DNA of 63,912 nt, counting the filler, from Platydemus manokwari (taxonomy: Eukaryota), in assembly GCA_037951405.1 (NCBI GenBank). It is 5 parts of 5 records of this genome, joined end to end, with 100 filler letters (N's around TTAATTAATTAA, not from the genome) between each part and the next. Parts side by side here need not be neighbours in the genome. Positions count along the whole stretch, not along the records: positions 12,444 to 26,726 come from JBBMOY011489195.1; 4 more parts are not named here. One strand, written 5' to 3'. Below, piece after piece: positions 1-60,699 of the stretch. A model generated the notes under the pieces. It was given only the letters and a program-made list of their open reading frames with translations. It was not told the DNA's origin and did no database searches. The position numbers and the translations under genes are program-made. The number at the start of each line of letters is the position of its first letter. Positions within the stretch are counted from its first letter, which is position 1.

Positions 1-1259
1 CTTCATGAAATGTTGATCACTCATTGCTCGATCTAAAATTACCATAGAAACAATAGAAACATTTTAACTGAAACATATATATCGAATGATATTATTGTAA
101 AATGATTGGATATTAAATTATTAACTCACAAATATTTCCTGATTTATTTCAAATAAAATGATTGGCATAATCTATATTGATTCGAATAAACAAATCAACC
201 ATTTAACATATTTATGATTAAAATTAAATTTTATTTTCATTATGAGGTTGTCAAGGTGACTTGATAATAAAATTGGAATTTATTGATTTTATTTGAGAAC
301 AAACTTGAATAATTGCTAATTTCAAAGGGTTATTCGACGATTTATTCTGTTTTTTATAATGATGTTTTGAACCATTTTACGAGATTTATTATTTTTGACC
401 AACTTTTATTTGATACGTATCGATTAGAATTCCTTTTATAAATTTATAATATGTTAACTTGGATCAAAAAAAATTAATTTGAAATATATTTTTGTTTAAT
501 TAAATAAGCAAATCGATTCTGACTTTTTCGACGACTAATTGATTTTTATTTTTTAATCTAAAATAATATGTTTGAGATATATTTACCAAAATCATATTTA
601 TTTAAAATTAGATTCATTTGTTTCAATATTTGTTTTTAAAGAGATTTATGGTTTCTTAACTTTTCTGTTCTTTTGTAATGTGTACTGGTTATTGAAGTCC
701 CTGAAAATCATCGATAAATTAAATCGAAACCAACTTCTCATAAATCAGCAAACATAAAAACACCTTCAACATAATAATATTATTTAATAAATATCTAATA
801 TTATATTTTGTTTAATGTGCGGTTTTTAAAATAGTTGCGGCTTTTATTTTCCGGCCTTTATTTTTTAATCCTATGAGATTGACATTTTATCCGTAGTCCG
901 AGTCTAAGGAGTCTAAAATACCTATGTTAATAATGTAGTGGTACAAATTAGAGTGGTGAGTGTTTTATATTTTCCATTGCTTAGGGTAAGGTAAAGTTTA
1001 AAAGTTTTGCTTAATTCGTAAGATCAATAATGTATGCTCATCTTTTTAAATGATACCTAATAATTAATTCAAGTAAGAGCTTGATGTTTAGAAAGGCGTT
1101 GTATTTATATTTATGTTGATTTTAATATAATATGAAGAGAGACGTAGAAAGTTATTATGGTCCCTGAAGCTGAAGATTCATATTTCAGAAGATTCTTGGT
1201 AGTTCTTCTCAGTTTTAGTTAACGGGAAAATGTTGAGAAATAATGGAAATGTCTGCTTT

Positions 1260-1717
1260 GTTTTTTGAGCTTGGAGCACTGAAAAAAGATATAATGTTGA
1301 GTATAGACGAAAACTTGCGAAAGAAAAACGGTTAGCACTTTGAAACCCTTTGTTAGCACTTTAAGCATTTACATCTCTACACAACCATTCAGATATGGAA
1401 ATCAAATAATCCCAGCTATCTTACATGAAAAATTGTAACTCGAATAAAGAACCTAGCCTCGCAGTAACATACCACATACACAAAAACTAACAAGGCGATT
1501 AGAAACTTGAGTAATTAAAGATCAAATCAAAATGTTATGTAAAGGTGATACAGAAATTACTCATAAATCTCAAATATAAATACCGATATAAACATGGCCA
1601 ACTGTCTGTTGGAATCCAATTTTTGGCTGTACTTTTGAGATGCTCTGTTTTAGAGTCGCACTGATTAGTAAGTTTAACGAAATAAAGGTTTCAACCTTCT
1701 ATTCTTTGGTGTCAACA
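1260..1717 (+). mobile_element. LTR-like repeat (family A) followed by a PBS-like TGGTGAC at 1723
   Basis: Aligns by eye with 13325-13821 (e.g. AAATCTCAAATATAAATACC...ATGGCCAACTG, AATAAA, ends GTCAACA). The 5' boundary is approximate. Confidence 0.65.
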
Positions 1718-1873
1718 ATTATTGGTGACTTCAAAATAGTCACTAAAACCCCTTTTTAATTTTAAAATTTGTTTAATTACACCTGCAATTACGATGATAT
1801 TTTCGCAAATAATATTAGTTTTAAGAGTTGTAATAATAGGATTTTAATAATGCGGTTACGTTTTAATTATTAT

Positions 1874-2340
1874 TGTTGGATCCAAAAGACATAAAGGTTG
1901 CAATTTATATTTCACTCAATTTTACTAATCAGTATGTCCATAAATAACTCCAAAATTCTAAAATTCTCCATAAATCAAACACGGAAAAACTTTATAATAC
2001 TCGACTTTCAACCGATAGTTGGCCATGTTTACATTGGTATTTACATTTGAGATTTGCGTTTATTTCGTGTATCACGTTTTGATATGACCTTTTATTTATC
2101 AAATCTCAATTGGATATATTTTTTGTGATCGGGGTTGGTCAATCGCTATGAACGTTACTGCGTAGTTATGTCAATTTCCTTCTTTTTTTCATTCAAGTCT
2201 TCTCTGATTAGCGGTTTACTATATCAGTATTGTTATGTAAGTATATAAATGCTCAAAATGCTAAAATAATGGTTCCAAGGTGCAAAATCATTTTTCTTTA
2301 ATGAGATTTCATCTTTACTGAAAAATATATTGATTATGTC
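1874..2340 (-). mobile_element. Second, inverted, diverged copy of LTR family A
   Basis: The reverse complement contains AAATCTCAAATGTAAATACCAATGTAAACATGGCCAACT and ends CCAACA, collinear with 1290-1717. Confidence 0.65.
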
Positions 2341-2899
2341 TATTTCTTACAAATTCTCGTTTTGTATTACTTTTGACTATACTATTATTCCGCACATGTA
2401 TGTATGCATGCATGGAAATTTTGAAAACAAGGGTTTCCAGGTGCCAATGTCGTTATTTTTTGGAAAATTACTCACCCCACGCATTGGGTATAAATATGAT
2501 GAAAATGTCTGTAAAATGAATGTAAAGATTTTATAAATCGATTTTATACATTAATAAAAATTATTATATATAAAAATTGTAGTTGAATATTATTTTGTGG
2601 GTTGATTTTTCAGTTCGTTTCAATGCGCGCTTTATAAAATAGTAGAGGCTTACAGATATAATTAAACGAAATTAGATGAATCTGAGATAGGCTTCAGTTA
2701 ATCAAAAGATTGCCAATAAAGAAGAATCTATAAAATGTTCAATTATAAAAATAGATTTGATTAAACTGAAGGTAGATTGCGTTAATATAAGAATAAATAA
2801 CTTCCGTTAAGGTGATAAAATAGATATTAAGTAATTATATTGTTAAAATACGATATTCGATTCAAAAACCATAAAATCAATTACCAATACTTGAGTAAA

Positions 2900-3832
2900 A
2901 TGGAAGAATTTAATATCCCACAAGAAGAATTATGCGAAAAATTACAAACCGATATTCTTAATGGACTGACTCAAGAACAATCTAAAGAAAGATTAAAACA
3001 GAATGGTTTCAACCATTTCCAATTCTTGAATAATAAATGGAGCTTTCATTATTTTTTCAAAGTAATTTTTGGAGGGTATAAATATTTTATTTGGAATAAT
3101 TTGCTCTTCTGTTTAATTTTGCAAGGAATAGAATTATTTTATGAGACTAGTAACGAAGGAAACATTATGTATTTAGCTTATACTCTCTTGTTATTGATTG
3201 TAGTTGCTTCTATTAATACAATGTGTAAAAGAAACCTCAATTCTTTTATGTTAGAGCATCTTAGTAAGCTGATCAAGAACAAAGTAAAAGTCGTAAGAGA
3301 TGGGAAAATTTGGATAGTAAATATTAAAGAATTAGTTCGGGGAGACATTGTTGAAATTAACCAAGGAGATCTCATTCCTGCAGATATGAGACTGATTGAT
3401 TGTCACGATTTAAGATTGAACAATCTATTTTTAACTGGTGAAATGAAGAAGATAGAATCCAGTTTTAAGAAGTCAATAAATAAGAACTTATTCGAGTTGG
3501 AAAATGTTGGATTTTTTGGTGGCTTAGTTACAAAGGGAAAAGCACGTGGTTTGATAATTAACACGGGTAAAGACACCATGATGAGCAAAATGATGAATTA
3601 TATGATACATGGAGACTGGAATAAATGCATGATCCGAAAAGAGATTAATCATCTTCAATATCTTATCAAAATTAGCGGCGCTATCATGGCAGTTATTGCA
3701 TATGTAGTCTTTTTTGCAGCTGGTAAATCTGGAATGGAAGCCGCAATGTTCTTGTCTGGATATAATATTGCTTCAATATGTTTATATTTACAATTAAAAG
3801 AGTATAAAGAAACGGCTTGCAAGATGCAATAG
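2900..3832 (+). CDS. Truncated P2C (Na+/K+- or H+/K+-type) P-type ATPase alpha-like protein: N-terminus, TM1-4 and actuator domain only
   Basis: Motifs NGLTQEQSKERLKQNGFN, KVVRDGK, ELVRGDIVEINQGDLIPADMRLI, LTGE and GLIINTGKDT. First ATG at 2900, intronless. The ORF stops just after the TAKRM-equivalent (TACKMQ), before DKTGT. Confidence 0.8.
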   Translation: MEEFNIPQEELCEKLQTDILNGLTQEQSKERLKQNGFNHFQFLNNKWSFHYFFKVIFGGYKYFIWNNLLFCLILQGIELFYETSNEGNIMYLAYTLLLLIVVASINTMCKRNLNSFMLEHLSKLIKNKVKVVRDGKIWIVNIKELVRGDIVEINQGDLIPADMRLIDCHDLRLNNLFLTGEMKKIESSFKKSINKNLFELENVGFFGGLVTKGKARGLIINTGKDTMMSKMMNYMIHGDWNKCMIRKEINHLQYLIKISGAIMAVIAYVVFFAAGKSGMEAAMFLSGYNIASICLYLQLKEYKETACKMQ

Positions 3833-4211
3833 TAGATCATAAAATTAGAATCGTAATAATAAAAAATTATTTATGGTATTAACTGACTTATTTTTTGACT
3901 CTTAAAAATGTATTAAAAATTATTGGTAATGAATATGTCAAAACAAAACCGAAATGCACAGCCATTCTTTCAATCTACCAGTGACGTCGTAAATGTGGCC
4001 AAGCTTTACAACTTTAGTTGGTGAGTGTAACACTACTCGATAAGTGATTTTCTCTAATTATGCCGTTACTATAATTTAAATATAGATTTCATTATCAAAA
4101 TTCGCAACCAATAAAAGATATTATTTAATTTCACAATAAAATAGCAAGTAAAATATGAGTGTCATTTTTAGTAATCATTCCTTTGATATGGACAGGAAAA
4201 TAATTCGGAAA

Positions 4212-6179
4212 TTATTTCGGTTTCAATATCAATCCTAAACTTTTACAAAATCTTTTCAGATGATTTTTAGAGTTATAGGTAATTAATAATTTGATGTGCC
4301 GATCATCTTCTGGAACTTCTATCGAAGAATCAGAATCAATCTGAGCGATGTTGCATTGAAATTTTGAACACAAAAAATCTAAATTGTTTTGATTATTAAA
4401 GTACTTTCCTTTCAAAATCGATGCTGGACATCTTATTCTTTTTCTATGCTTCTTTTCCATGGATTTGCTTTCATTGGATATGCTTGTGAGATTACTTGAT
4501 TCAATCCAAATGGTTTCATTAAATGGTTCTGTTAATATACGGTTGTTGTTTTTATTTGATCCGCTTGATCCAAGAGTTACATCTTGTGTGGCAGAGCTTC
4601 TCATTCCCCAATCTGAATTTTCTACAGAAACTGAAACTGAAGTCTTGGTTCTTTGACTCGTTAAAGGATTAACTTTAATTTGAATCATATTTTTTCTGAT
4701 TGTCTTAAAATTATCGATTTTCTTCATTGGTAATTTCGTCGCATTGTATGTCGATTGGTCTTGTTCCATGTAAGAATTGGGGCCATTTCCTGAAGTATAT
4801 TTTCGATCATGATTTTGAGAAAGCATACGAACGGTCGGATCTATCATGCATTTAATAGAAGGAACTCGTCTGTTGGGATCAATCCTTGTATCCCAATTGA
4901 AGGATCCAGAATAGGATCGAAAGCGTTTGGTAAATGGTCGAAAAATTAAATTTTTCGCTGACCATTTGGAGGACGTTTTTGTTGGCAGACTATCCTTGAA
5001 AACAGCTGTTTCCATTATTCTTGGCATGATTTCTTCAATTATCGATAAAGCCCTGGCGATGTTTTCATAATTTGTACTGTGAATAACTATCAACCGATGA
5101 GGTAAACCGTTAATGAAAGTCATACTCAATGGATGCAATGCAATATGGCAATTACAGTTATTCTCAATCATTTGCAAACGTCTATCAAAAAGAAAATCAG
5201 CTTTTAAATCAAGAATGAGTTGTCGAATATCAAAAGGATCCATAAATTTCATAAGCTTTCTCAACCGATGTCTTTGAAATTGGTGGAGGCTGTTATCAAC
5301 TTCACTAGGGTATGTGTAAACGTAAAACTGAAAGCTTGAGTTAAATCCGTCAGGAATAGTTCTCATTTCATTATATTTTTTAGCAAGTAATTCAAGATAT
5401 AAGTATAAAGATTTTCCTTCATAAATTTCACCGAAGGATTTTCCATGTTTTCCAAATACATTGATTGGGGTCGAATTAGCAGAGTCTTCTTCACTGGAAT
5501 ACTCTTCTGAATTTTCTTTTAAGGAATTACTCAACTTCGTTTGATACATTGATGCAGGATTGCTTTCATAATGTCGTGATTTCCTAGTGATATTCCCCGC
5601 ATTTGTCGGCTCAACATAATCTTGAGTGTATGAACGCTTTAAATGACTTTGCATATAACGCGGTATTTCTTCTTCATCAAGATGTTCCATTTTATGTTTA
5701 TTTGAGTTACAGCAAGGTTTGTTTGTATTATAGTTTAATTTCAGCAAAAGCAGATTATTTTTTAAATCATTAATATTAGAGGGTTTCATTTTATTTTTAT
5801 TTTCTGCATTTTTATTCTGTAAAGCTTCAAGATTGGTTTTTGTGTTGAATTTTTTCTTCAATAAAAAAGCAGCTCTTTGAAGTTTTGTTTTCGAAACTTT
5901 CTTGTTGGAATCGTTTAGATTTTGATAATCATTTACTATATCCGATGGAATATTCGATACGCAACTTTTATTATCGGATAGCCAATTTATACATCGATGG
6001 ACAGGACATGATCTGTCAACTGGTGGTTTCCAGTCCGTGTGGAAGTTATCTTCCATTGAAGAAACATCATCATTGCTGTTGAGAGACACTAATGACGATC
6101 TCATCTGTGTTTCCAATGTCGATAATGTTACTGGAGTATTAAATGATAAATCATCGTTAGCTTTATCAAGTAATCCCAT
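4212..6179 (-). CDS. 655-aa protein with two divergent KH-like domains and low-complexity S/N-rich linkers
   Basis: Long intact ORF. RLQMIENNCNCHIAL...RLIVIHSTNYENIARALSIIEEIM and IRCPASILKG...LCSKFQCNIAQI...LLITYNSKNHLKRF follow type I KH patterning but lack GxxG. The ORF is well supported; the domain call is tentative. Confidence 0.7.
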   Translation of the reverse strand: MGLLDKANDDLSFNTPVTLSTLETQMRSSLVSLNSNDDVSSMEDNFHTDWKPPVDRSCPVHRCINWLSDNKSCVSNIPSDIVNDYQNLNDSNKKVSKTKLQRAAFLLKKKFNTKTNLEALQNKNAENKNKMKPSNINDLKNNLLLLKLNYNTNKPCCNSNKHKMEHLDEEEIPRYMQSHLKRSYTQDYVEPTNAGNITRKSRHYESNPASMYQTKLSNSLKENSEEYSSEEDSANSTPINVFGKHGKSFGEIYEGKSLYLYLELLAKKYNEMRTIPDGFNSSFQFYVYTYPSEVDNSLHQFQRHRLRKLMKFMDPFDIRQLILDLKADFLFDRRLQMIENNCNCHIALHPLSMTFINGLPHRLIVIHSTNYENIARALSIIEEIMPRIMETAVFKDSLPTKTSSKWSAKNLIFRPFTKRFRSYSGSFNWDTRIDPNRRVPSIKCMIDPTVRMLSQNHDRKYTSGNGPNSYMEQDQSTYNATKLPMKKIDNFKTIRKNMIQIKVNPLTSQRTKTSVSVSVENSDWGMRSSATQDVTLGSSGSNKNNNRILTEPFNETIWIESSNLTSISNESKSMEKKHRKRIRCPASILKGKYFNNQNNLDFLCSKFQCNIAQIDSDSSIEVPEDDRHIKLLITYNSKNHLKRFCKSLGLILKPK

Positions 6180-7510
6180 TTCTAATCAAATTTAAATGAA
6201 TTAAAATGTATAATTATATTGAATGCAATGACTATTAATCAATAGGCTAATTATGCTATACTCGTGGTAAAATGTTTAATTAAAACAAGGTAATATAACA
6301 TGAGACAAAGATGTGATACATTGAGTGAGGCTTAATCAATTAATTGATTACACTCGACTCAATGTCCTCCATTTAATTTTTATAAAAAATCCTAACTGTA
6401 GTAATTTCCTTGATAAATTTTTAGAATTCAAATTTGATGACAACTCTGACATCTCTTCAAATGCTACAAAAGAACACAATAAAAGGCCCCAATAGTCATT
6501 TATAATTATAACAATGCAATCTTAAAAATCTAAACCAAATTTGATTAGTTGTGATTTCAAGGCCACCGCGAACATGATGGGCTCTAATGCTAATAAAAAC
6601 CATTATTTTGAGTATAATGAATAAATGTACATATGATAAATACAAACAAATAAATACAGAAACCGTAGGATGGGATAAAAATTATCAAAGCAGCAATGAA
6701 CATAGTCATATCAATTAAGCCCATTCGTGAAAACAATAACCACACATTAATAGTATTTGATAACGAATTCAACAGCTTAAATAAAGGATGAGTATATCAT
6801 ATTTGGACACTCAATTCACATGACAAGATGGCCGATTATCCTCATTGTCTTTCAGATTAACTCATTTTTCGGTAAGTCATTTTTTATTTTGAGTATCCGT
6901 TGAGGAAAGAAACTTCTCGTAAATATCTACTGAGACAATTCCCAACTAAACGATTTGGAAATGTGAGGCAATTTCACCCAGACAAAAGCACCGCTTTTCT
7001 TCCTACTCCATAACCTAAATCAATAACGTTTCAATCTTTCAAATAATCGGGTTCAATTAATCCACATCTTAACTTTGTTAAAAAAGCATTTAGGTTACGC
7101 CTTTCATATTTAATAGTAATGTGAGTTCTATGATGCCGGTTGAAGTGCAATGTCAATCGGACAGGTGTGTGAATTATAAAAAATCAAAATAAAAGACAAA
7201 ATATGAATTAAGAATCTCCTATTAAGATAAACAATGATATACACCTTTAACTAATATGGTACATAAGGAATCTAATATGATTCCCATTTAAATACTATAT
7301 ACTAGTCAATAAAAAGTATCTCAGTCAAGCAAACTTAATTTACTGATCGAATAATTTAACAACAAGCACGTTAAAGAAAGATGGGTCAATGAGGAAAGGT
7401 TCCAATGTCCAGCCTCCTTTTGGTTAATGTACTAAATTTTTAAAATATGATTGATTTTAATATATGATTTCACTCCCAAAAAAAATATTGATATAAATAA
7501 CAAAATACTT

Positions 7511-7894
7511 TGTAAATGATTTATTAGTCACAACAATACAACTTTACCTCCAAAAACAGTCTAACACAAATTCTAACATAAACATAATACCGGCAGCTAA
7601 CATACTGGCAATTGACCATCTCGGTCTCATTATTTATATTCGTGTTTTGTGTGTTTCGCTTTTAATTGATTGTTTTGTTTATTGCATTTTCGTTTGATCC
7701 GACGACCAAAGGATGTGGGGATTAGTCAATCCCTATGCGTATCTCCTCGTGTAGTTATGCATCTCGTAAAATTATGATTTTTCTGTTTAACTCATCTGTG
7801 ATTCGTTGGTTGTCAAGCTCGTATGATTATGTAGGTGTGCCAATGTTTAAATATTTGTCATTCTCAAAATTCATAATCAACCTATAGTTCAACA
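7511..7894 (-). mobile_element. Possible solo LTR
   Basis: TGT...ACA termini, with AATAAA near the 3' end on the minus strand. No target-site duplication found. Confidence 0.3.
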
Positions 7895-8329
7895 TTTGGT
7901 TGCCCTACAGGGTGCTTTTCACGATATTTTGAGTTAGGTTGATAATAATATTCTTTTTAATTATTATTTATGTTTTTATAATCCTTCAGTTAAAATATAT
8001 TATAGTCTTTACATATACATGATTTCCACTATAAAATTCATTATTACGAAAGCATTTTTCTTTACTCTCGAAAGTCCGTCATTTAGAAGATTTTATTTTA
8101 AATTGATTGAAAATTCATTTAACGAATTCATTCATTTTAAATTCTTTATCTCTACTTTCTTTTTAATTTTTTATCATTTCTTCAAAGGATCAATAGTGTT
8201 TCTTTTCGTTTTTCTACGTCGATAAAATCTTATCAAAATATAAACAAATACAATTTAAAACATTTATTTGTAAAAATCGCATGTCAAATTATACTAAAAG
8301 TGTTAGAAAACCATAACAGAGCCTAAACA

Positions 8330-8830
8330 TAGTCTCCATCAGCTTCAATAACGCGTGTAAAATTTTGAAAACTCATTTGTGGACTTGGCGTCGATGTTGA
8401 CTACATATATTGGAAAAAATCGTTGCTCACCTCTCCTGAATTACTGAAATTTTCTCCACATCGGTAGCATTCGTAGTTCCTGAAGATAAAGCTATCCATG
8501 AGGTTTGTGTCGGGTGAGTAGGCCCTCTGCTTTAATAGAATAATGTTCTTCAAACCAAAGTCTGATTAACTGTGCTGCGTAAGGTCATGTTGGATGATCA
8601 TTTCCCAAGCAGGTTTTCGTGTTGAAAACTTTAAAATAAATATTCTGCAAGAATTGCAGGTATCTCTTAGAGTTGATGGATCCAGCGTCTTGAAGAATTT
8701 CGAAATAAATGAGTGATTTTCCATAGTTGCTGGCAACAGTGATATCCACCGTAACCTACAATATTAGGAAGAATCCCAAGAATTGCATCTTCGCTAACAA
8801 CAATGATAGTTGAAGGAATCATTAACCAGA
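8330..8830 (-). mobile_element. Decayed CMC/EnSpm-like DNA transposase fragment
   Basis: Minus-strand peptides NIVGYGGYHCCQQ, QLIRLWF and AKSTNEFSKFYTRY resemble, in order, the GYxGCxxC, LxxLW and KAxEFRxFLLY motifs of this superfamily. Stops are present. Confidence 0.4.
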
Positions 8831-11669
8831 AAAGCTGATATAAAAAACACCACTAATATAAATTTATGGTATTATGAAAAAAGAAACTCACACTCATAAT
8901 CTATAGACAACATGTAGTCTTAGAACCCATTGTAATAAGAAAATCAATAAAACCTGTTATTAGAAGAAAATCACAAGAACAACAAGTGATATTCAATTGA
9001 CCCCATGAAGTAGTAAGAAACCCCTTGAATGAGATAACCTTGAATATAACATTATTAGGAGCATTAATTACCAGCTCCATCATCATAATAATAATGATTT
9101 TTGGCTACATCTTGTATAAAAAAAATACATTAAAGACAATCCTCGATCATGAGGGATTGATGTATAGCAGATAAATATTTTAGTAAAATAGGAAATTTTA
9201 ATTTTTTTAGTAACATTGAATGAAATCCACAATTGCTGATTCAACAATAAGTTGAAATTTAAATGTGATTCTACATTCCCAAGAAGATGGAACTTTTAAT
9301 ATCAAAGTGTAATGCCCAATCTACCCTTCAAGCCTTCTACCATCATTATTCAAAATCCACAATCAGAAATTACCATTAAACTTCATTCTGAGAAAATCGA
9401 TATAGAAGAGTTTTCCTCAGCCTTCATAAACCTATTACTCCAGAAACAACCAAATCCTCAAACAGAACTTGAGAAGATGTAATTCGAGTAAAAAACATTC
9501 CATATATTATAATGATGGAATTCATTGAACTCGATCAGCTCGATTCGGTGGAATTTCACAAACTAAATCCCTATATTACAGACAGTCCAGTTAAAATTTC
9601 TTTTAACGAGCCATAAAACAGCATGGTATTTATGTGCAAACCAAACGATATTAACCGATTCGAAGAGCAATTTTTTATGCATGTCCTAGATGTGAAATTG
9701 GCACTTGATAACAACACTAATTATCCAGTGTGAATAAGTCTGAAATTATAAAGGAAAAGTCATCATTGAGCAGAAATGTTGTCCAATGAGGAAGATTAAG
9801 CATCATTGCACAAATAAGAATAATATGGAGGAGCACTCTCCTTGTTAAGCTGTAAACTGAGAAGAGATAAGTCGGGAAATTATTTAACTAACTTATGGGA
9901 AGATTATAGTTGGAAATAAAATTGAAATTCTTATCCATTTTATGGAGGAAGTTATGGGTATCCAAGACATCAAAACTGTAAAGAAAATAATGAAAGAAAA
10001 TAGTAAATTTCCCAATGAGAACATCGAAAATACTTATGAGGAGAAAATCGGAAGAAAGATGATTCAGCTCGGAGAAATTAATGACGAAATTGAAGCAATT
10101 GTGGAAAAATATAAAGCCACAAATTAGAAATGGATTGACGAGGCAAGAAAACACTAAATGAAGATAAGAGATGAAGAGGACAGAATTTTGAGCCAAGAAA
10201 CAAGTATATTCGACTGAATGAAACGAGAGTTCCCCTTAGAAAAACTGTCATTTGAACCAGAAAGGTCTTGTGGGAGTTAAAATCCTATAAACAGCAATAT
10301 CTGGGTAGAAAGGTAGACGAATTTTGGAAGATGTGTATGAAGGAATTTCTGTAATTGACATAAAGCCGATATGTAGAAAAGGGGCAGGTAATCAACCATG
10401 ATAGTTTATGTTTCAGCGTAGAGGAAACTAATGTGGAAAAGTCACAACAAGAAAATTACGACTTCACTGAGCAGGACCATATTTTTCTCCAACAAATATG
10501 GTCGGAATCCGAGATAAAGGAAAACAAACAGAAGATCATACAAAAAACAACTATGACATTAATTATTGATCGGTGTTTATTGTATCGATATTGTGTTTAA
10601 TGTATAATGTAGCTTTTATGTTTAATTGAACTGGATCAATTAGACGTGTTAATATTTTCAGTTTTATCGAAACGTATTGATAATCTGACATCATTTTATT
10701 GCAACATTTTTCAGTACTATGGACTGTATTGGCTATAAAATAATATTTATAATAATCTAAAGAGAGGGTTTAAATATGTAAATTATATATTATGTAATAT
10801 TATAGTATTAATTATCAGAGAGGTTTAATTATTAAACCATAATTTTTTTGGATAATTTCATATACTGTTTATTTGAAGAGCAAAAGGGATTGAAATAGAA
10901 TTAAATCAATGGGGACGATAATTTTAAGTGTATCAAAATAAAATTTATTGGAGATATTATATGGTTAACTAGGGGAAGTATAAAAAGAGGGTAAAAATAT
11001 CAACACATGCACAAAAAATCATTCAGCATTAAACTTCATCGATTGCGTATAATCTTGGACAACGAGAACAATCCCCATATTTTTTCAGTTAGTTTTTCAT
11101 TTAGAAAACTACACAAACACCACATAAACATCGAATTTTCGCCTCATGAGACAATAAAAATGGGAAATTCACATACTTGCGAAATTCTAAGATTTCATTT
11201 CAAGAATGGGAAATACAAGCAGAAAATTGAAATAATCGTATTAGAGCAACAAGCATACCAGCGTACTCATCAACAAACTCATTATTATCAATAATTCCAT
11301 GCTAAACATTCAACGATATGAATAAATGGATTATTCGATCAAGTAAATGGTATACAGCCTTGTAACAGCTGACAACTTCGTACAGCCTTATTGTGTGAAG
11401 GCAATAGGTGTGGCAGTAGTGATATTTTTTAAGTAACTTAGTTATCAGTGTCAAATTGTAGAAAACTATAATTCTATGATTACGAATAATGATTTATGAT
11501 CCCTATATTATTAAGAACTAAAACTTGTTATTACAAATATTTATTAAAAATAACACAAATACATGAACTATTCTAACAATAATAAAATAAAATTACAAAT
11601 GGCTTTTAAAACTACAATATACATCAAGTTACACTTATAACGAAAAAAGAGACGGTTAACAAACTCCTT

Positions 11670-12443: not shown

Positions 12444-13324
12444 TTTACTTGACAATAGGAAATCTTTAATAATATTTTGAAAAATATCTTATGAGATAAC
12501 GAATAGGAAAGGGAAAGTTTTAATAAAAACGCATGGGGAATTAATTTTAAAGAAACAATTTAAGAATTTAAACCATATAAGGAGGTTGAAAACACTGCTC
12601 TGCGATTATATTTTTCATTCAAGCCATTGCCAATTAATGTGAGTACGATTGTTATATAAACTACTGATCATTATTATCGTACTTATCGTTTATTGCCAAA
12701 TTATCGAGCTTTGACTCAAAGTCCTCTTTAAAAGGTTTTGCTCTAAGAGTGTTTAGTTCTCGTCATCCAGAATTTGCTACGATAAATCGTATTGATGTAA
12801 TTTTTATTAAATGTATATTCGTAATTGTAAACTCAATTTGATCGGTTTTAAGTTTTATTTTTATAAACGTTTAGTGTATCTAAAGAGTGCTCATTGACTG
12901 AGAAAAATATAAATAAATAGGATACTTTTGAGACTAAAAATAAGATAGTTCGAGACTGAAAATAATAGTAAAATATACAAATAATTGTTGTCATATATAT
13001 TGTCTTCAATAAGCGAGACAAATAAAGAAAACAATCAGGTTTAGAATTGTACCTTGGATTTCGTTGGAACCCCGTGAGGCTGATAAGACAACTTTGATAT
13101 ACCACAATATAAAATACAACTTGAGACTGATATAATATAATAATATAAAACACTACAAACCAGAAACACGTCAACATTACCATTTTAATCTACTGATCAA
13201 AATGAAGAGAAGATTGTAATGTACCCAGAAACTCTTGTTTACCTAAAATAACCATGAACAACTTCCTTTTTATTGGCTTCATCAAACAGTAAGTTAAACA
13301 CTAACCTTCTTGCCACTGGAGATA

Positions 13325-13821
13325 TGTTGTCCTTGCATGGTCATATCGTTGAGTGAGAAGAAATATTGCAATGGAAAAAAGGATTTACATCTTTAAACAT
13401 TTATTTAGATCATTAATCATTCGCATGCTTTCATGACCATACGGACATGGTAATCAAGTTAGATGGAAAACGATAATTGGAAAAAGTGACACAGAAGTTA
13501 ACGTACACACAAAAACCAGAAGTCCAATAGAAACATGAGAAAATAAAGATTAAATCAAAATGTGAGACAAAAATGACACAAAAAATTACACACAGATCTC
13601 AAGTATAAATACCTCTTGTAAAGATGGCCAACTGCCAGTTTGAAGCTAAGTTTTGGTTGTGTTAATTTGGGAAATTGTATTGAATTATAGAGTAGGAACT
13701 GAGTAGTACGGTTACCAGTTGTAAACCAAGTTTTATTGCATCTTTGGGTTTTTTGTTAGTCGTACTGAACAGTACGTGAGTTAGAAATAAAGCTTACAAA
13801 CTTCGATTTTTGGAGTCAGCA
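13325..13821 (+). mobile_element. LTR (family A) at the 5' end of the Gypsy element; PBS-like TGGTGAGG at 13861
   Basis: Starts TGTTG and ends CAGCA, with TATAAATA and AATAAA inside. Homologous to 1260-1717. Confidence 0.6.
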
Positions 13822-14726
13822 ATTATTTCAGCTATTCAGAACTGAACCACAACAATTATTTGGTGAGGTCGGAATTGAACAAAAATTAATTTTATGCATT
13901 TAAACAACCAATATCCAAAAAATTAAACCTCTTCAAATCAATAGTATGTCCAACCTTAAATCAGAATGATTCCCCAAGCAGACTTTGTTAATTGCAGAAA
14001 CTCCGAGTGGACCAGTACTGAAGAGATCCAGTAGATTTTTTAAACTTCATGGTGGACTATTTCATGTATGCCTCTGCATTCGGATGAACCGAAAAACCAA
14101 AGTTCCAAATACTGCTTTTTTATTTGAAAGTGCAGCAGGAGAATTCGACAATCAAATTGACTGAAGAAATATCATTCAGTGGACGGCCATGAAAGATGCG
14201 CTATCAGAGAAAATAATCAGTGGTGACGTTGGCCGCATTTTTCATTAATTTTTTATTTCCAGATTTTGGAGATTTTGAGTACCACTTGTCAACTCTAGAA
14301 AACAAAGCAATGTGTCCAGAACAAACTCGAAAAAAATAGTTGCAAATCAATTTTTAAAAGGTGTTTTTCACTACATCAGTACAGCACTGAGTCTCGTCGA
14401 CAACACTAACTATGATGAGCTCAGCAAAAAGGCTATGAGAATGGAAATGAATTTCACAATCAGAATTAGGCAATGTGTCACATATGCCAGAGGTGGCCAA
14501 CTTTTGTGTACGTAAGATCGACTTTTCATTTGAATAACATCTCACGCGATCTACTAAAATTGGCTTCAAGATCGACCGGTTGGCCACCCCTGACATGCTA
14601 CAGAAACAAATATTTCTACGATGATTAAAATCGAAGAAATAAAATCCAATTAAACCAATCCTTAAGGAAACACCAGAAATCAAAAGAATACAAAATATAA
14701 CTTGGGACATTGAAAGACGAAATCAG

Positions 14727-17700
14727 TTGGGATTACCCAGTTCTCATGTACACATGACGAGATCACTAACTCAAGGAAAAATTCCAATGGAAAATATAAA
14801 AATAAATCAAAGAAAGATTGGTGCAATAATCGATTCTGGATCAACAATATCTATCTTAACAAGAAATTGCTTGGGTAAAGAAGAACTCGATAATATGATC
14901 TGGGGACAAGAACACATAAAAAAATTGGCAGGAAGTACTCCAAAAATTATAGGGAGAACAACAGTAAAAATCGAAATAGCAAACAAAACATTTCGTCAAG
15001 TAGTAGCCGTCATTAAAGGAAATGAATTTGACTGTTTAATCGGAATGGACATCCTCGAGCAATTAGGAAATGTCATACTGGATTTTCGAACAGAAAATTT
15101 AGTAGAAATACACTCAAGCAGAGTAACACATAAATCAAACGAAGTATTTCTAAACAATTCCCTTTCACTTCCACCAAGATCAGAAGTTATATATTATGCG
15201 AATACGCTTGAGAAAAACACAGGGTATATACGATTCGAACCTAATCAACAATTTATACATAAATATGAAATACCCAAATGTTATGGGTTAGTTAAAGTTG
15301 ACGACGAGCGAGTATCGGTTAGGTTCACAAATTTTGATAATAAAACGGTAATTCTTAATCCAGATACAAGATTAGGAACGTTAACATCCATGACGGAAAT
15401 GTCTGAGATAATCGATTGTGGAATTCCAGTCAAAAGATATGATGATATAAAAATAGACAGCCAAATTATAAAAGAAGCACAAAAGAAAAGATTGGAAAAT
15501 CTAATCAATCAGTATCATATGATAATAACACGACACGAATTTGATGTCGGGAGTACGCACATGTGGAACACGAAATACCATTAATGCCAGGTAAAGAAAA
15601 TTCAATTCGAATGAGACCATATCGAATGTCCTATGCCCACCAAGAAGAAAGTCGGAAACAAAAACAACAAATGCTAGGTAACAATATAATCAAGCCTAGT
15701 TTTTCAGCATGGGGATTTCCTGTAGCATTGGTTATTCTGGAAATTCTGAAATATTCTCCACAATCGATCTAAGAATATTGGCAATTTGCTATTAAGGTAT
15801 CGAACAAATGCAAAACGGCCTTCATAGACGACGAGAGTTTGTATGAATTTAATGTTTTATTTTTTGGATTAACAGGAGCACCAGCTATTTTTCAAAGAGG
15901 CATGGATTTTATATTAATGGACGTGGCACACGCAATGGTATATATCGACGATATTATCATTTTTTCTAAAGATTTTAATGAACATATTAATGATATTAAA
16001 CAGATATTTAAAAGACTAAAATTAGCAAATCTGAAAATAAGAGCCTCAAAATGTGAATGGGTCAAGTCAGAAGTTGTCTATATTGGGCATGTGATTTCAA
16101 AAAAGGAACTACAACCTAATCTGCAAGGATCGAAAAAATTCGAAAGTGTCCCGTACCTAAATATGTAGATGCCGCTCGATCATTTCTTGGATTAGCAAAT
16201 TGTTACAGGAAATTTATAAAAAAAATTCACATATTGCACATCCTATTAACATGCTGTTAAAGAAAAATACAACATTTCGATGGAAAACAGAACAACAACA
16301 AGCATTTCAATAATTAAAAGATAAATTAACCACCAATCCCATATTACGACATCCAGATATGAAGAAACCGTTTATTGTGATGACAGATGCCAGTGGATTC
16401 GCTATTACAGCAGTTTTAGGACAGCAAGACGATGGAAAAGAGAGCATTTTGTAGCTTAAACAAGCAGATCATTAGAGAAACACGAAAAAAATTATTCTAC
16501 TATAGAAAAGGAAGCTCTAGCTATTATCTTCGCCGTAACACATTTCAGACAATATTTACTAAGACATAAAATAATACTGTATATAGATCATAACCCACTG
16601 AAATGGCTCATGAATCACAGAGACGTCACCAGTAGACTCATAAGATGGGTAATGACTTTACAACAATATGACTTAGAAATCAGATATCAATAAAGAAAAT
16701 CAAATGCAAATGCCGACACCCTTTCAAGAATTAAAGAAGACATCAAAGAAATTTTAGAAGAAAAATCATTATATACAATTTACAAAGCCATAAAATATGT
16801 TTCTGATATGTCCCAGTTAAAAGAAGGTCAAGAAAATGATGACGAAGTAAATAGGATCAAAACACAATTAAGCCGGAGAGAGTATAATAGAAATCCAAAA
16901 GAATTAAAATAAAGAGGATTCTTCATTCAAAATGATCTAGTGAAATATTATGATGGAACTAATATACTTTTAGTAATACCCAAAAAACATCAATCCATCT
17001 TACTCATGCAATATCATGATGGAGGACTAGGTGGTCATCTCTCAGCCAGAAAAACATTATCGAGTTTGGGAAACATATATTATTGTAGAATAATAGAACA
17101 AGACACCAGAGGTGGTGTATATCATGTTAAATATGTATTACTATACGAAATACGGGATGCTGCACAAAGGCCTCATTAGTACCAATTCCGGTACCACCAA
17201 CTCCGATAGAAATGACAGCAATGGACATTGTTGGACACTTTCCAGAGACGGTAAATGGAAATAAATATATATTAGTATTCTGTGACTACTTAACAAAATG
17301 GCCCAAGGCATTTGCAATACAAAATCAGAAATTGTCGCTTACATTTTCGGTTGAGAATATTGTCTTTCGTTTGGGAACACCAAAGAAAATATTAACAGAC
17401 TGAAGAACTAATTTTCTTAGTGATTTATTTAAAGCTATTACAGATTTATTTGGAATTATGAAGTTGAATACTTCTCCTTATCATCCTCAAATAGACGGGC
17501 TGGTAGAAAGATTTAATGGTACATTAATTAATATGTCATCATCTTATACTAGGAGGACACAACGAGATTGGGATTTATATATGTATATATTCTTATCGAA
17601 ATGCAGTACACGAGGAAACCCGGTGAAACACCGTATTACATGATGTATCTAAGAAGGAACAACATGCCAATCGATTTAAATTACCAAGAACCGTTAACTC

Positions 17701-18107
17701 AGTATATGGAAACTGCTGGTTACAAAACCCTTATGGAAGAAAGATTACAATCAGTGTGGTCAAAAGCTGGATTGAAAATTAAATACAGTCAGGAACAGTA
17801 TAAAGCAGCCTATGATAAAAAGACGCACGAACATCAAATAAAAGTAGGTGATTTAGTGTATCTATTTCGCCCAGAAACGATCAGAGGATTATCACCAAAA
17901 TTGAGCAGACCATATAAAGGACCCTATGTTGTCTGTGGAGCAACAAATACCAGTCTGAAATTGAAACCACAAAAGAGTAAAAACAGTGAGACAATAGTAG
18001 TTCGTGTAAACAGATGCAAGAAAGTATCAGAGGTGGATAAAAAAGAATATCCACTACGAGGAAAAAAGAATAGAATAATCGAATCATCGAATAATGCAGG
18101 ACCATAA
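14727..18107 (+). pseudogene. Gypsy pol (protease, RT, RNase H, integrase), disrupted
   Basis: ORF fragments 14727-15584, 15563-15772, 15839-16168, 16940-17179, 17212-17403, 17458-17643 and 17568-18107 carry the motifs in order. Confidence 0.93.
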
Positions 18108-19303
18108 AATAATTATTTTAATTTTTTGTTAATGATATTATGCAGTAATTAAGTTTCTAGCACTATGATACCAGAGAGAACAGAGATGGAACTAATCGAA
18201 GTATTGAACGTATATTCTACCTACACAAATTTGGTTTGGATCTACAAACATCACAAACCCGGTTCACTTCGAATTTTGAAGATACATCAAAATATGTCTC
18301 AAGCGTTTACATTGGATGAGGATATGAATCATTTCATAATTATAAATTTGTCCTCAAATACACGATATTCATGCAAAATCGCTTTTTAGCTAGATCAATT
18401 ATATGATTACTAATGGTCAGACACCCTACAAACAATTCACATTTGGACACGAGAAATTAGAAACAAGGTTCAAATAGATCCACTTTCCCATGGCATTACG
18501 TGTAGGTGGGCGTATGAGCTAAAATTAAAAGTTAACATAAAACTCGAACGGAGAGAATGATACAATTCGACAGAGTTGTCACATAAAAATATCTGTGAAA
18601 TTTAATAATCTTCGAACATATATAAAATACTTGTTATTGATAACATATTACGAAATGAAAGTAATAGGGGATGACTTGTATGATCCTAATCGGTGGATAC
18701 AGGCCCTTCAAGAGAGTAAAGCCGTGATGCTGATCGAGAGAAGGAATAAAGTACGAATTCAAGCAACTTCAACTACAATATCACTTCGACGAAAATGCTC
18801 TGAAAACCGACAAAAAAATTATGGAAGGCGGAAACCTCTGGAAGCAACCGCGATTAGCCTACGACTAACACACAAATTTTATAAATAATGCATAATAAGT
18901 AAAATTATAATAATTTTTAGTAAATAAATTATTTACCAAAAATAGACGTTATAGGTAAGCCCCTATTATAATTTTGGATTGGTGCCAAGATCTAATTAGA
19001 TTGCGGTGATAGACCAGAATTTAAATTAATAAGAATAACGACATTATTTTAATTTAAAAATGCTGAAGATTGAGAGATCGAATAAATTCTCCAGCGCAAA
19101 ACAAGGTATATGCCGAAGAACAACTCAGTTACCAATGATGTCCATTTTAGAAAATACAGCCATCACTAATATTTTCCGAACAACAGATTGGAAGATGAAA
19201 GGTTTGGCAACCGAAGTTAATAAGAAAACTAATGGCAATGGTGATATTAATGATAATAATAACTAAAATTACAAATAATGAAACTGAAATTCAAGTAAAT
19301 TAG
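18094..19303 (+). pseudogene. Gypsy ORF3 in the env position: signal peptide, tandem FN3-like repeats and possible TM segment, disrupted
   Basis: Reconstructed across stops and frameshifts: MQDHKIIILIF/LLMILCSN; LNVYSTYTNLVW...FIIINLSSNTRYSCKI; VQIDPLSHGITCRW...VKFNNLRTYIKYLLLI; VRIQATSTTISL; LMAMVILMIII near 19230-19262. Confidence 0.7.
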
Positions 19304-19511
19304 CTTACTTAAACAAATTTTCAATTTTTTTCAAAAAAAATTAACTATCAGAATACTTTTTAATCACGAAAATTTTACTAAAAATATTTTCCTTATATAT
19401 TTTCCCAGCATCTTGCAGATCCTTAAATCCATTCAAATAGAACCACAACGGATGAAATCTATCAGCCAGACTTCAGATTTTGGGACAAAATCTTACAGGA
19501 AGAGGGAGATA

Positions 19512-20048
19512 TGTTGGGTTTAACACAAACTAGCCAAAATGGCCTCAAAAATCAAGAAAAATCCTAAAAAGGGTCAATACACACAAACCCGATTAACACA
19601 CGTGCCCTTAACCAATAAGATTCGTTCTAATGTTAATCCATATTTAGAAGCTAAGAATCGACAGGCACATGCCGAGAAACGGCAGCAAGCTCAAATATTC
19701 GCCAATGACATAAGAAATATAAGGAAGATCTCAAGTAAAATGAATAAATTTAGCGAATTGAAAAGGAAGTTCAGCAACATCAAGCAGACACACTCGATGG
19801 TTCTATCAATGAAGCTGAATTCCGTGGATTTTTGCCAGTCTTTTTGGTCGGTAACTTTTGTACTTAGCTTATGTGTGATTTCAATGATCACTCTTTATTC
19901 TGTGTTTGACTTTCGGGCGCTGATCCCATCTTGAGTGATTTTCTTTGTGAATAGAGTAAAGAAATGTTATTATTATATTGCGATTTCGAGTGTATTATTT
20001 TGGTTAATATAGATTTGTAGATTCAAATTGTTGTTTAATAACACAACA
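19512..20048 (+). mobile_element. 3' LTR (537 bp) preceded by a polypurine tract
   Basis: AGGAAGAGGGAGATA lies immediately before TGTTGGGTT. The LTR ends AACACAACA, an 8/9 terminal inverted repeat. Confidence 0.75.
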
Positions 20049-22168: not shown

Positions 22169-23044
22169 TTAATAGCCGTTGGTCCCATTGCTAAATTTTC
22201 GATTCTTGTTCGAATATTCATTGATTTGCGTTTCAAATTTCACCAACTGTTGCCAAAAACCCGGATTGGGTTGAACGCAACATCTACGCGATTTAACAAA
22301 ATTGTAAGCATCCACTGCTGTGTGTCCATGGTAGCGGATTAAATACGCTATAACAATTGTGGCAGATCGTGAAATACCAGCAATACAATGCACTAGGACT
22401 CGACCTTCATCGGAAATATGTTGATGCATTCGTGATAAAATCGATGGAAAATGTAGTGCTATATCAGTTGATTCTTGATCATCTATGGATAATTCTACGC
22501 ATTCTATACCACTAGCTCTGACAGGACAGCCTTCTCTCAAGACTGAAACAATCATTGTTATGCCCAAATGTCGCAATTTATCTAATGTAACCGCTTTCAG
22601 TCCTGATAAATATAAATTTTCAGTTATTTTCGAAGCATCATTGAGATCTAATTGGGATATCGATTTGAACGATACAATATTTTGTATTGGGCGATATGAT
22701 GTTGTAAATCTAGACATGAAACCATTATCGCTATCTTCTTCCATACTTTTAGTTCCCCTAGTAGCAGATAAAAGCGGTTTCTTTTTTATTATTGATTGAT
22801 CTTTTAAATTTAATAATCCGTTCGAAGCAACCGTTGTATTTGCAGTAGTTTGAGAGTAAGTAAAATATGACTTATTTTGATTATCAGAATTGAAAGTTAT
22901 GGGCTCATAGTTTGAGCTAAATGAAAATGAACTTCTCTGACGCCATGAGTCTTTTTTCGTTGAGGAGTCAATTGATGAATATGTAAATCCTGAATTATTT
23001 GATTCAGCAACTTGATTAAAGTTGGATACTTTACGAAAGCTCAT
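22169..23044 (-). CDS. Atypical dual-specificity protein phosphatase (DUSP14/18/21-like) with S-rich N-terminal extension
   Basis: SKITENLYLSG, acid loop IDDQES, catalytic VLVHCIAGISRSATIVIAYLI and QPNPGFWQQL. Intronless, no rhodanese domain. Confidence 0.93.
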   Translation of the reverse strand: MSFRKVSNFNQVAESNNSGFTYSSIDSSTKKDSWRQRSSFSFSSNYEPITFNSDNQNKSYFTYSQTTANTTVASNGLLNLKDQSIIKKKPLLSATRGTKSMEEDSDNGFMSRFTTSYRPIQNIVSFKSISQLDLNDASKITENLYLSGLKAVTLDKLRHLGITMIVSVLREGCPVRASGIECVELSIDDQESTDIALHFPSILSRMHQHISDEGRVLVHCIAGISRSATIVIAYLIRYHGHTAVDAYNFVKSRRCCVQPNPGFWQQLVKFETQINEYSNKNRKFSNGTNGY

Positions 23045-24236
23045 TTGAAAAATGTTAGAATATCAACGTATTTCACAAATTATTAAAATAATAAGCAAAG
23101 AATATTTGCGAAAAATTTCTTTAAAATAAATGTTATATATTAAACTGAATTGAAATAATGTTTATTATTGATGAATTTACCGCGATTAAACAAATGAACT
23201 GAATTAATTAGATATAAAACCTTTAAAAAATATCTTAAATTATTATATGCATTATAAAATGCAATTAATTAATTATTATCTTAGATTTAATCTCTCATAT
23301 ATATCATTTTTAAAAGGTTTATATGAATAAAAATTCCTAATTTCAAACAAATTGGTAAACACTGATTTATTTTTGAGGTATCTACAATATTATTAATTAA
23401 TATATTATTTTTACATTTGATATCAAAGATGTTTCAAAAAATTAACCTCTTACTGCAAACGAAATTAGAAGAATCAGAGAATGATTTTCCTGTCAAATTT
23501 TTCAAATATTTTAGAGTATAGATTATAAAATATTGAAACTTCAATAATTAATAAATATGAGTCTCTTATGGTCTTACCTGTAAGAGTGATGGCGTAATCT
23601 CTTCTACAAAATCGTAAGATTTTAAGATTTTAGTTTTTATAATCATTCAAGTTGAATTGAGTTCAATCTAGAATATTTTTGTTGCATAGCTTTAAGATAA
23701 TAGTATAAACTTTAAAAGATAATTTTGATGTTAGGGATTAACTTAGAAATAAATTAAGTTTTACAAATAATAAAGTTACTTGAAATGATAAATGAAAGTT
23801 GTAATAAATAATCAATGCATATTTGTCATGAAACGATTGTACGTGAGTACAATGTTTGATTTAAAAAAGGTTCGCACTATTGGATCAAAAGATAATAATT
23901 CGTTTGTCTCGTCTTTTCGTTATTTTCTTAGGCTTGATGATTTGTTATTTATACTCTTACTGCTATCTTTGAATGATAATTTTTCCTTTGCATATCGGAT
24001 AATTAGAATAGTGCATCGAATGAGACTAGTTCCAGAGTAGAATAATTATCTGCCAATCTCAACTATGAGAGAAATTAGTAGAGTAGAGTAATTATTTATT
24101 GATTTTTCTGTCAAAAGTTCCGATGTATTTTTTAAGGGGGCAAAAATTCTATAACTACGATGATCACTTATATTGACTAATTTTTCTTATATTTTTGTGT
24201 ATTGTTATTTTTAGTCTTTGGAACTATTTTCATAGT

Positions 24237-25900
24237 TTATCTTTTATAATTACTATTTTTATAATTACTATCCGAAAAGGCCAAAATCGGAGCTGTGCAT
24301 AACTGTTCCTTAAGCTTTTCAGAACTTTCCTCACATTCTGTAGTCCACTCCAGTTTATTGTCACTTCCAGTCATCATTGTATTTAAAGAAGCTGTAATTA
24401 ATGCAAAGCCCTTGATAAATCTTCTGTAATAATTACATAGTCCTAGGAACGACCTCAACTAAGTGATGCAACCAGGTTTCATTGCTTCCTTAATCTTCTT
24501 TAATTTGTCATCATTAGTTTATATGCTTTCTGCATTGACCGTATTACCAAGGAAATTCAATTTTCTAGTGCCAAAAGTACATTTCTCTGGATTTATTTTC
24601 AAAGCTGATGACTTAATCAACCTAAATACCTTTTCAAGTTTCTCATTGTGTTCCTCTACGGTTCTTCCATACACTAAAATATCGTCCATATAAATAAGAA
24701 TGCCTTTGTAAATCAAGTCCTTGAATATAGTATTCATTAGACTCTGAAATGTTTCTGCGCGGTACATAATTCAAAATGTAGTCTGTTAAAACGGAACTGC
24801 CAAGTTCTAGTGCTGAATGCTGTTTTCTACTTAGAATCTTTCTCAAGTTTTACCTGATAATATGCTTGACCTAAATCTATCGTGGAGAAAACTGTCGCTC
24901 TATACACTGAATCCAATAACGTTTGAATATCAGGTACCGGGAATAAAACTCCTCAGTCTGTTAGTTTAATTTTCTGAAGTCTAAACACATTCTGATTCAA
25001 CCATCTTTCTTTGGAACCACAACCAAAGGCGAATTCCAAGGGCTTTTGCATTTTCTACCAATTCTTGAATTTTCTTTTTTAAATTGATTGGCTGCTTTTT
25101 GGGGTTTTGATATAGGTTCCCATTTCGTGCGGATCTCGTGCTTCACAATATCTGTTAGTCCCAAATCGAACCGAGAAGCCATAAAAATTGAACCATTTTC
25201 TTTTATACACCTATTCAACGAAAAATCGTTCTTATCTGCATTGGTCGCGGTATTTCTTTCCCACATCATTAGCATCAATTGATTTTATCCCTGCAAGAAA
25301 TATTCCACAAGTCTTCATCATATCAACTCCTCCGATAAATATTGGTGAAATTTCTTTTACTACAATGATCTCCTTTACTAGAATCTTGTTGTTCCAAACT
25401 ATTGTGATCTTTATTTTACTTAGACACAATTTGTGTGTATTGGAGAATATACCAGCCAATCGAACAACAGAATTTTTAATCTGCGGCTCTCCAATGGGCC
25501 TCCAATTGCTCTTGTTCATTACTGTTATTGATGTACAATCGTTGTAAAATTTAGAGGCAATAGCTTTCATTGATCTTGTCGGTCTCTCATTGTTTTGAGA
25601 TTCAATGCGATTAACTGGTGCTCCTTTACACCAAAATCTCTTTCCTGCACGATTGAACTTGGCTTTTTGAATGACATCTCCTTCTGAAAGGTCTTCCTTG
25701 GGTCACTTTGAAATACTGAAAGAAGCACTTGTCTTCTTGATGGCATGTATGGGCTTCGTCGGAGTTAACTTCTCAAAATTAACAGCTAGCTCTCTTCTTC
25801 TATCGTCGGACATTGCAGGGTAGTGAGTAAATGACTCTTTCAATTTCTTGATATTTACACCTTGCAGAATAAATAGTCTTGAAATTTTTTCAAGAGTGTT
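24237..25900 (-). mobile_element. Decayed Gypsy gag-pol fragment
   Basis: SPWNSPLVVVPKKDG, LIYMDDILVYG, LKINPEKC and RSFLGLCNYYRRFIKGFA. It breaks off before RNase H and integrase. Confidence 0.9.
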
Positions 25901-54477: not shown

Positions 54478-54714
54478 AAATGTTGAATGTTCAATAGCTG
54501 ATGGAAGTTATATATCTGGAAAGAGCACAAATAGCGAATACGATTCGATAAAATGGAAGATTATTTAACGATCATTAGTGTTTGTTCGGGTTATTTATAT
54601 AATAAAGAAGTTATTTATTTTTCAATATTTACCTTATGTGTTAGTGAAATAAGTTTTGACATAGATTTTAGTAGAGAAGAAATATCTTTGAAATTTCATC
54701 TTATACAAGTTTGA
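54478..54714 (+). pseudogene. Polinton minor capsid (penton) C-terminal fragment, copy 1
   Basis: NVECSIADGSYISGKSTNS, QYLP and IDFSREEISLKFHLIQV* resemble Polinton minor capsid motifs (GSYxNG, YLP, IDFRGEEI). Confidence 0.7.
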
Positions 54715-54756
54715 AGAAAGATTTCATTCTTCGTCTCAAACAGGTTTGAAAAAAGA

Positions 54757-55053: not shown

Positions 55054-55123
55054 TGTACTATTCATCATTTGCGAATTCTAAAGAATGAGTTTATGAAAAT
55101 ATATTAATGAGGGGAGTGATAGT

Positions 55124-60655: not shown

Positions 60656-60699
60656 CCTTCCCCACATCTGTTTTTGAGACAAAAAATGAAATCCTTCTT

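Follow-up and report, generated by a model that had tools for sequence, protein, structure and literature searches.

An FN3-like module with predicted membrane topology at the C-terminus of Pol in a lineage of Ty3/Gypsy retrotransposons

Introduction

What kind of protein is encoded by a Ty3/Gypsy element that carries fibronectin type III (FN3)-like repeats in the position of an envelope gene? This question is raised by a locus of Platydemus manokwari contained in the window, that is, the whole stretch of DNA analyzed here (63,912 nucleotides, filler included). A first-pass annotation proposed that the locus contained a separate env-position ORF, with its own ATG, for a secreted or type I membrane FN3 protein that could act as an attachment protein, receptor decoy, or alternative envelope. 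The question touches on a broader one, namely, by what route Ty3/gypsy elements with an env reach new cells in organisms other than Drosophila, which is presented as open in the available text of PMC13524379. We describe here a cassette of FN3-like repeats, a transmembrane (TM) segment, and a PDZ-ligand tail that is fused to Pol, family-encoded, real, and apparently undescribed. The architecture of this cassette is well supported; the function that we assign to it is a proposal.

Organization and decay of the element in the window

The element is 6.7 kb in size, and Pfam comparison revealed a pol region with the order protease (PR), reverse transcriptase (RT), RNase H (RH), and integrase (IN), which is that of Ty3/Gypsy elements (Metaviridae). 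A PBS follows the 5' LTR and a PPT precedes the 3' LTR, and positions 14784-18140 are colinear in tblastn searches with the pol of three related sequences (L002, P0004, and P0005). The features of the element are as follows:

13325..13854, + strand: LTR-A (TG...CA, 530 nt), with a PPT-like purine run 5' of it; read from the sequence, high copy in sequencing run X1
13861..13872, + strand: PBS-like sequence beginning with TGG, tRNA unassigned; read from the sequence
13946..14640, + strand: short, decayed gag-position region, assigned by position; no Pfam match, tblastn to the gag of L002 at E 1.6
14488..14592, no strand: MITE-like insertion of 105 nt with 14-nt terminal inverted repeats; contig depth very high in that bin
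14784..18104, + strand: decayed pol (protease, RT, RNase H, integrase, integrase C-terminal linker); Pfam and tblastn
18105..18107, + strand: stop codon at the boundary of integrase and module, absent here in intact relatives; sequence and relatives
18108..18165, + strand: hydrophobic segment resembling an internal signal peptide, in the pol frame and interrupted by a stop; relatives are hydrophobic at the same place
18195..18458, + strand: FN3-like unit 1; profile E 2.5e-9, 46 bits, 35% identity to P0007
18462..18744, + strand: FN3-like unit 2, containing a stop and changing frame near 18590-18600; 21 bits
18745..18807, + strand: start of FN3-like unit 3; 9.3 bits, tblastn match of P0005 at 18592-18795 (E 7e-4)
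18813..19228, + strand: decayed stretch in which the remainder of unit 3 and the stalk are expected; by position alone
19229..19261, + strand: hydrophobic run of 11 residues, a possible TM remnant; hydropathy
19497..19511, + strand: polypurine tract; read from the sequence
19512..20048, + strand: LTR-B (TG...CA, 537 nt), with a PBS-like sequence 3' of it; copy number in run X1 very high

The window copy is a decayed member of a Ty3/Gypsy lineage, probably one of flatworms, as judged from its kinship with an element of Burro layout (see below). The first-pass annotation correctly located the ATG (18094), the pol stop (18105-18107), and every peptide that it quoted, but the copy is more broken than the single frameshift and single stop that were assumed: five stops (18105, 18150, 18387, 18411, and 18558) and a frame change near 18590-18600 interrupt the module, and comparison of positions 18813-19511 with the relatives detected no homology. 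Only one sequencing run, X1, which is probably the source of the window, was found to contain the stretch, and no RNA run is listed as containing it. At least three further diverged contigs of this run span the pol junction. Within three of the stop codons of the window, 3, 3, and 2 contigs of run X1 differ from the window sequence; at 18105-18107, the number of differing contigs is three.

The two LTRs are unrelated to each other (alignment score of 50.5 against 41 +/- 15 for shuffled sequences), that is, the matching LTR pair expected of a Ty3/Gypsy element is lacking at this locus, which is likely chimeric or nested. Given that the LTRs are unrelated, their presence on both sides is no proof that the module lies inside the element, as had been argued from the downstream LTR; the placement inside the element holds by virtue of the in-frame fusion observed in the relatives (see below). 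Both LTR-A and LTR-B have a PPT-like run ending with GGAGATA at the left and a PBS-like TGG...TCGG sequence at the right, and each of the junctions between an LTR and the internal region is bridged by single-copy contigs of run X1. The unlike LTRs suggest head-to-tail nesting of different families at a PPT/LTR junction, possibly reflecting a target-site preference, or else a chimera. LTR-B also contains an open frame of 136 aa (window 19524-19934) with a basic start and a hydrophobic end.

The module is the C-terminus of Pol in related elements

A search with the integrase C-terminus yielded 3 matches among 285 candidates (P0004, P0005, and P0006). In P0004 and P0005 (59-61% identical), a stop-free run leads from the integrase into the module, where a hydrophobic segment is followed by three repeats, each about 90 aa long, and then by a stalk, a helix of TM strength, and a short tail. 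Scanning of metagenomes with integrase patterns produced 11 loci, and the three closest ones (L001-L003; 57-61% identity to the P0004 integrase) extend for 393-444 in-frame residues past the integrase, with hydrophobic peaks of 2.6-3.0. For the other eight (L004-L011), the part analyzed was the in-frame tail, which comprises 5-243 residues and has no such hydrophobic peak. Altogether, five intact relatives (P0004, P0005, and L001-L003), with integrases 54-61% identical to that of the window or of P0004, proceed in frame from the integrase to a signal-like segment, two to three repeats, a stalk, one hydrophobic helix, and a tail. No LTR pairs were found for L001-L003.

A phmmer search with the window module against 1.84 billion proteins gave four matches, of which two are real (P0007, E 2e-24, and P0008, E 2e-16); the other two, P0009 (sushi) and P0010 (Ig), are multi-repeat artefacts. 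P0007 begins in the integrase C-terminus and aligns across the junction into the module. A profile search with A4 returned P0007 and P0008 alone among 2053 candidates, the window module found no relative among the 74 candidates of a word-indexed search through longer proteins, and scans of viral contigs gave none among 18 and 82 pattern matches. The only match of the module in a PDB sequence search, Tiam1 (E 0.06), was judged spurious.

In the integrase tree, from which L011 was left out as too short, the window groups with P0004 and P0005 (support 98/99, unnamed rows). Homology connects the two-unit modules of L001-L003 with those of the three-unit group (hhalign probability 94%, E 1.2e-7), and 5 of the 6 units in this comparison scored above all shuffles. 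P0006 (integrase identity of 54%) carries in-frame ankyrin repeats after the integrase, and FN3 is not detectable in its tail (58 of 200 shuffles reach the score), so that the position after the integrase appears to accept more than one kind of cargo. A hydrophobic signal-like segment follows the ankyrin repeats of P0006.

Because the relatives run stop-free from the integrase into the module, a separate ORF starting from the ATG at 18094 is not needed, and this part of the first-pass annotation gives way to a module that is the C-terminus of Pol. The FN3 units of the window begin in the pol frame (18000+3k), and the ATG at 18094 lies in another frame. The claim that the module belongs to the element family, as opposed to a one-off insertion, is borne out by the in-frame fusion in the five intact relatives and P0007 and by the further copies in run X1.

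FN3-like units and their predicted fold

With a profile of the relatives' units, unit 1 of the window scored 46 bits, unit 2 scored 21 bits, and the start of unit 3 scored 9.3 bits, each outscoring 200 of 200 shuffles. A profile built from L001-L003 failed to detect the window units (24, 4, and 25 of 200 shuffles, respectively, reached them). That units 1 and 2 repeat each other is correct, but the similarity is modest and depends on the boundaries: with hand-picked boundaries, their global score was reached by 0 of 5000 shuffles and the local score by 27 of 5000, and when a 3-residue extension was omitted, these counts rose to 2 and 235 of 5000, respectively. The region 12444-13324 of the window was considered as a second FN3 remnant, and comparison gave no support.

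The hallmarks of FN3 domains are a B-strand Trp and a tyrosine corner. The Trp is found in units 1 and 2 of the window and is absent from the units of L001-L003. The tyrosine corner had been read as LxPxTxY; in most units it is L-x5-Y, with the Pro mostly missing. Pfam searches with 15 translations of the window matched the module to no family, and the cut-off of Pfam fn3 (PF00041), proposed earlier as a check, was reached by no member (best match fn3_2, E 0.69).

Structure prediction points to the FN3 fold anticipated in the first-pass annotation. An AlphaFold model of the P0004 ectodomain, built from a 4-row alignment, is all-beta, with a mean pLDDT of 68 (about 80 for domains 1 and 2 and 55-60 for domain 3). 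In a Foldseek search of the PDB, the top matches of this model were IGF1R, Tie2 FN3a-c, and fibronectin (E 2e-8 to 2e-7), with low TM-scores of 0.2-0.4 for the whole model, and many FN3-named proteins were among its matches in the viral library. VIA superposed the model on FN3 with a Z-score of 8.9 and an rmsd of 2.6 A over 84 residues, and FN3 chains fill most rows, Z-scores of 8-9 lying only just above the stated background; ESM features gave 0.93 to fn3 clusters. The P0004 model thus predicts beta-sandwiches of about 90 aa that superpose on FN3, a prediction extended to the window by homology. For L002, the Atlas score was 0.85 and AlphaFold modeling of unit 2 gave a pLDDT of 42, and the putative FN3 fold of its module rests on profile homology. 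Among the rows listed in all three fold searches, FN3 proteins dominate, and on these rows the modeled repeats are not likely to be a fusogen.

Membrane topology, PDZ-ligand tail, and selection

Hydropathy analysis of the five intact relatives predicts a signal segment, an ectodomain, a single TM segment, and a cytosolic tail, that is, the type I membrane layout considered in the first-pass annotation; in P0004 and P0005, the signal segment did not reach the cut-off used. Every tail contains N-x-S/T sites. For the window, a TM segment had been suggested at the hydrophobic run LMAMVILMIII. Its distance from the integrase is about right (407 codons past the NRCK motif, compared to 385-388 in P0004 and P0005), but the run comprises only 11 residues and is encoded by AAT-rich triplet DNA that reads poly-Asn in another frame, leaving the TM assignment unconfirmed.

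All five complete tails end with T-x-V (STLV in two, TTLV in L001 and L003, and ATFV in one), a count that leaves out P0006, P0007, and P0008, whose sequences end before any TM segment. From its sequence, this ending is predicted to be a C-terminal class I PDZ-ligand motif (S/T-x-V). The three lineages with T-x-V have tails that are otherwise unalike, and the chance of three independent class I ends (S/T-x-V/I/L) is about 9e-5.

The dN/dS value, a check proposed in the first-pass annotation, is below 1: it is 0.28 (0.18-0.43) for the module in one pair, L001 and L003, indicating purifying selection. By part, the values for this pair were 0.29 (0.15-0.58) for FN3, 0.11 for the TM segment, 0.14 for the tail, and 0 for the integrase.

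A gB-type fusogen in a relative with the module

In L002, one ORF (97-11205) spans at least 3703 aa, with the order gag, a weak ubiquitin-like region, gB, PR, RT, RH, and IN, followed by the FN3-TM module. The gB segment between gag and protease matches the Monjiviricetes fusion domain (E 1e-83). The same ORF contains zinc knuckles and two protease-like motifs, and its gB is flanked by an internal signal and a TM segment of its own. The records of P0004, P0005, L001, and L003 start in RNase H or integrase, past the gB position. Complex prediction for the gB and the FN3 ectodomain of L002 gave a score of 0.01.

This layout is that of Burro/GYPSM1, the giant planarian Gypsy elements, whose one polyprotein is described as having env placed between gag and pol in the same frame and as carrying a ubiquitin-like motif together with ankyrin repeats (PMC6431247). 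Compared with Burro by description, L002 shares the layout, P0006 shares the post-integrase ankyrin repeats, and the window copy, at 6.7 kb and without env, lacks the giant gag-env-pol arrangement; the available text of the Burro account names no FN3 or post-integrase membrane module (PMC6431247). Flatworm GAG-ENV-POL errantiviruses are likewise Ty3/gypsy elements with an HSV/gB-type env between gag and pol, as in L002 (PMC13524379), and the gB of L002 shares motifs, by eye, with the gB segments of Smed_errantivirus_1 and _2 (PMC13524379). The word "fibronectin" has 0 occurrences in the main text and supplements of PMC13524379, and no Pol ending in a second membrane protein was encountered in its available text. 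More generally, no description of an FN3 module in a Gypsy element was found in the literature searched; Grohme 2018, Repbase, and the figures of PMC13524379 lie outside that search and may already mark it.

In the window copy, no gB remnant was found (best E 0.48) and no Pfam fusion domain was matched in the frames scanned. Because the fusogen is absent, the copy is by definition not an errantivirus. It is also decayed, with a short gag region, and may be chimeric; therefore, its lack of gB says little.

Additional ORFs follow the polyprotein in several relatives. L001 (2684-6445) and L003 (2055-5873) contain RING-finger ORFs and a 700-aa ORF of no known family, and L002 (11375-13470) contains an ORF with a weak DEDD exonuclease. 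Post-pol coding capacity is also known from the ORF3s of rotifer LTR retrotransposons, which include small TM proteins and DEDD exonucleases (PMC5408684). Unlike the module, these are ORFs of their own, and the available text describes no FN3 among them (PMC5408684).

Possible roles of the module

gB-type fusogens normally need a receptor-binding partner, as in herpesviruses, and a polyprotein ending in a membrane protein is a layout familiar from RNA viruses. For gB-carrying retroelements, no such partner was found in the literature searched, as far as its text was available. The conserved FN3-TM-PDZ protein is a concrete candidate partner for the gB of the same polyprotein, and in this family it is a Pol polyprotein that ends in a predicted membrane protein.

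We propose, with a probability of about 0.5, that the module has an accessory role as an adhesion or attachment protein, establishing the cell contacts needed to transfer particles, with fusion performed by gB. This reading is favored because Sidekick and DSCAM share the FN3-TM-PDZ build and because the tail of HTLV-1 Env binds a PDZ scaffold. Sidekicks combine FN3 repeats and a TM segment with a C-terminal -SXV that is bound by MAGI/Polychaetoid, and the Sdk prototype of Hydra ends with TTLV (PMC7479261, available text); DSCAM also has a PDZ-binding end (PMC5026468, available text). The likeness lies in the build, namely, FN3 repeats, a single TM segment, and a class I PDZ-binding C-terminus, and does not imply sequence homology; the module has no Ig domains, only two to three FN3 repeats, and a much shorter tail and is made from a retroelement polyprotein. 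The cytoplasmic tail of HTLV-1 Env binds Dlg1 (PMC3395148, available text); this is an analogy only, given that in HTLV-1 the fusogen itself bears the PDZ motif, whereas in the present elements the motif belongs to a distinct FN3 protein that is likely non-fusogenic.

Under the proposed adhesion mechanism, the internal signal would direct the nascent polyprotein to the ER during translation, signal peptidase would free the ectodomain to yield a glycosylated type I protein, and the TM segment would stop transfer. The T-x-V tail could bind junctional PDZ scaffolds of the MAGI, ZO-1, or Dlg type, and the protein would accumulate at cell junctions and assist the passage of particles from one cell to another in contact with it. 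Attachment and contact would be provided by the FN3 protein and fusion by gB, either the element's own or that of a helper. A host adhesion receptor built like Sidekick or DSCAM is the likely source of the module, acquired in a single capture event. We suggest more tentatively that the family possesses a two-glycoprotein entry system in one polyprotein, with a captured gB before Pol and a captured, miniaturized adhesion receptor after the integrase, the latter building a contact site, anchored at junctions, through which particles would be passed to stem or germ cells.

Alternatively, the FN3 membrane protein could manipulate the host as a decoy with no role in particle transfer, either mimicking a cytokine or insulin-type receptor in its membrane-proximal part or occupying junction scaffolds, and thereby dampen immunity, alter stem-cell signaling, or block superinfection. 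The top fold matches include IGF1R/insulin receptor, IFNAR, and IL-6 complexes, but at 8-15% identity these are generic FN3 matches that cannot single out a receptor class, and both a ligand-binding N-terminal domain and a signaling domain are absent. In favor of a decoy, the FN3 part evolves faster than the integrase (dN/dS 0.29 versus 0), and Burro elements carry host-manipulating BIR, BCL2-like, and ankyrin domains (PMC6431247, available text). On balance, we consider a decoy unlikely.

The constraint on the individual parts of the module bears on another scenario, in which the module is mainly an anchor of the polyprotein and the FN3 ectodomain a mere spacer: a signal left on the integrase would tether Gag-Pol to ER or junctional membranes and fix the site of assembly. 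The module is fused to the integrase in every complete case, its TM segment and tail are its most constrained parts (dN/dS of 0.11 and 0.14), and P0006 has a late hydrophobic segment without detectable FN3. A spacer role fits poorly with the purifying selection on the FN3 repeats and with the retention of two to three copies of them across divergent lineages, and we regard this scenario as rather unlikely.

The possibility that the FN3 protein is an alternative envelope replacing the fusogen, raised in the first-pass annotation, draws on the env position, the env-like topology, and the window copy, which has the module and no gB. It is weakened because L002 carries gB and the module together; furthermore, FN3 rows dominate the three fold searches, and the missing gB of a decayed, short-gag, and perhaps chimeric copy says little, making this an improbable explanation. 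Finally, the view that the module is a host fragment captured only once, or part of an unrelated nested element, and evolves neutrally is refuted for the family: the unrelated LTRs make the locus composite in some way, but the fusion is in frame in five intact relatives and P0007, the pol junction is also present in three or more other diverged copies of run X1, and the module is under purifying selection.

Other features of the window

A second decayed Gypsy RT region is located at 24270-25218 (- strand). Long inverted repeats, 77-94% complementary and about 4.4-6.2 kb apart, occupy positions 54564-60857 and possibly belong to a foldback or TIR DNA transposon. Four long, uninterrupted, host-like ORFs were also noticed and compared by eye with known proteins: a piece of a P-type ATPase (2831-3832), a dual-specificity phosphatase-like ORF (22169-23062), a RING/RBBP6-like ORF (28405-29901), and one resembling calbindin-type EF-hand proteins (31590-32543).
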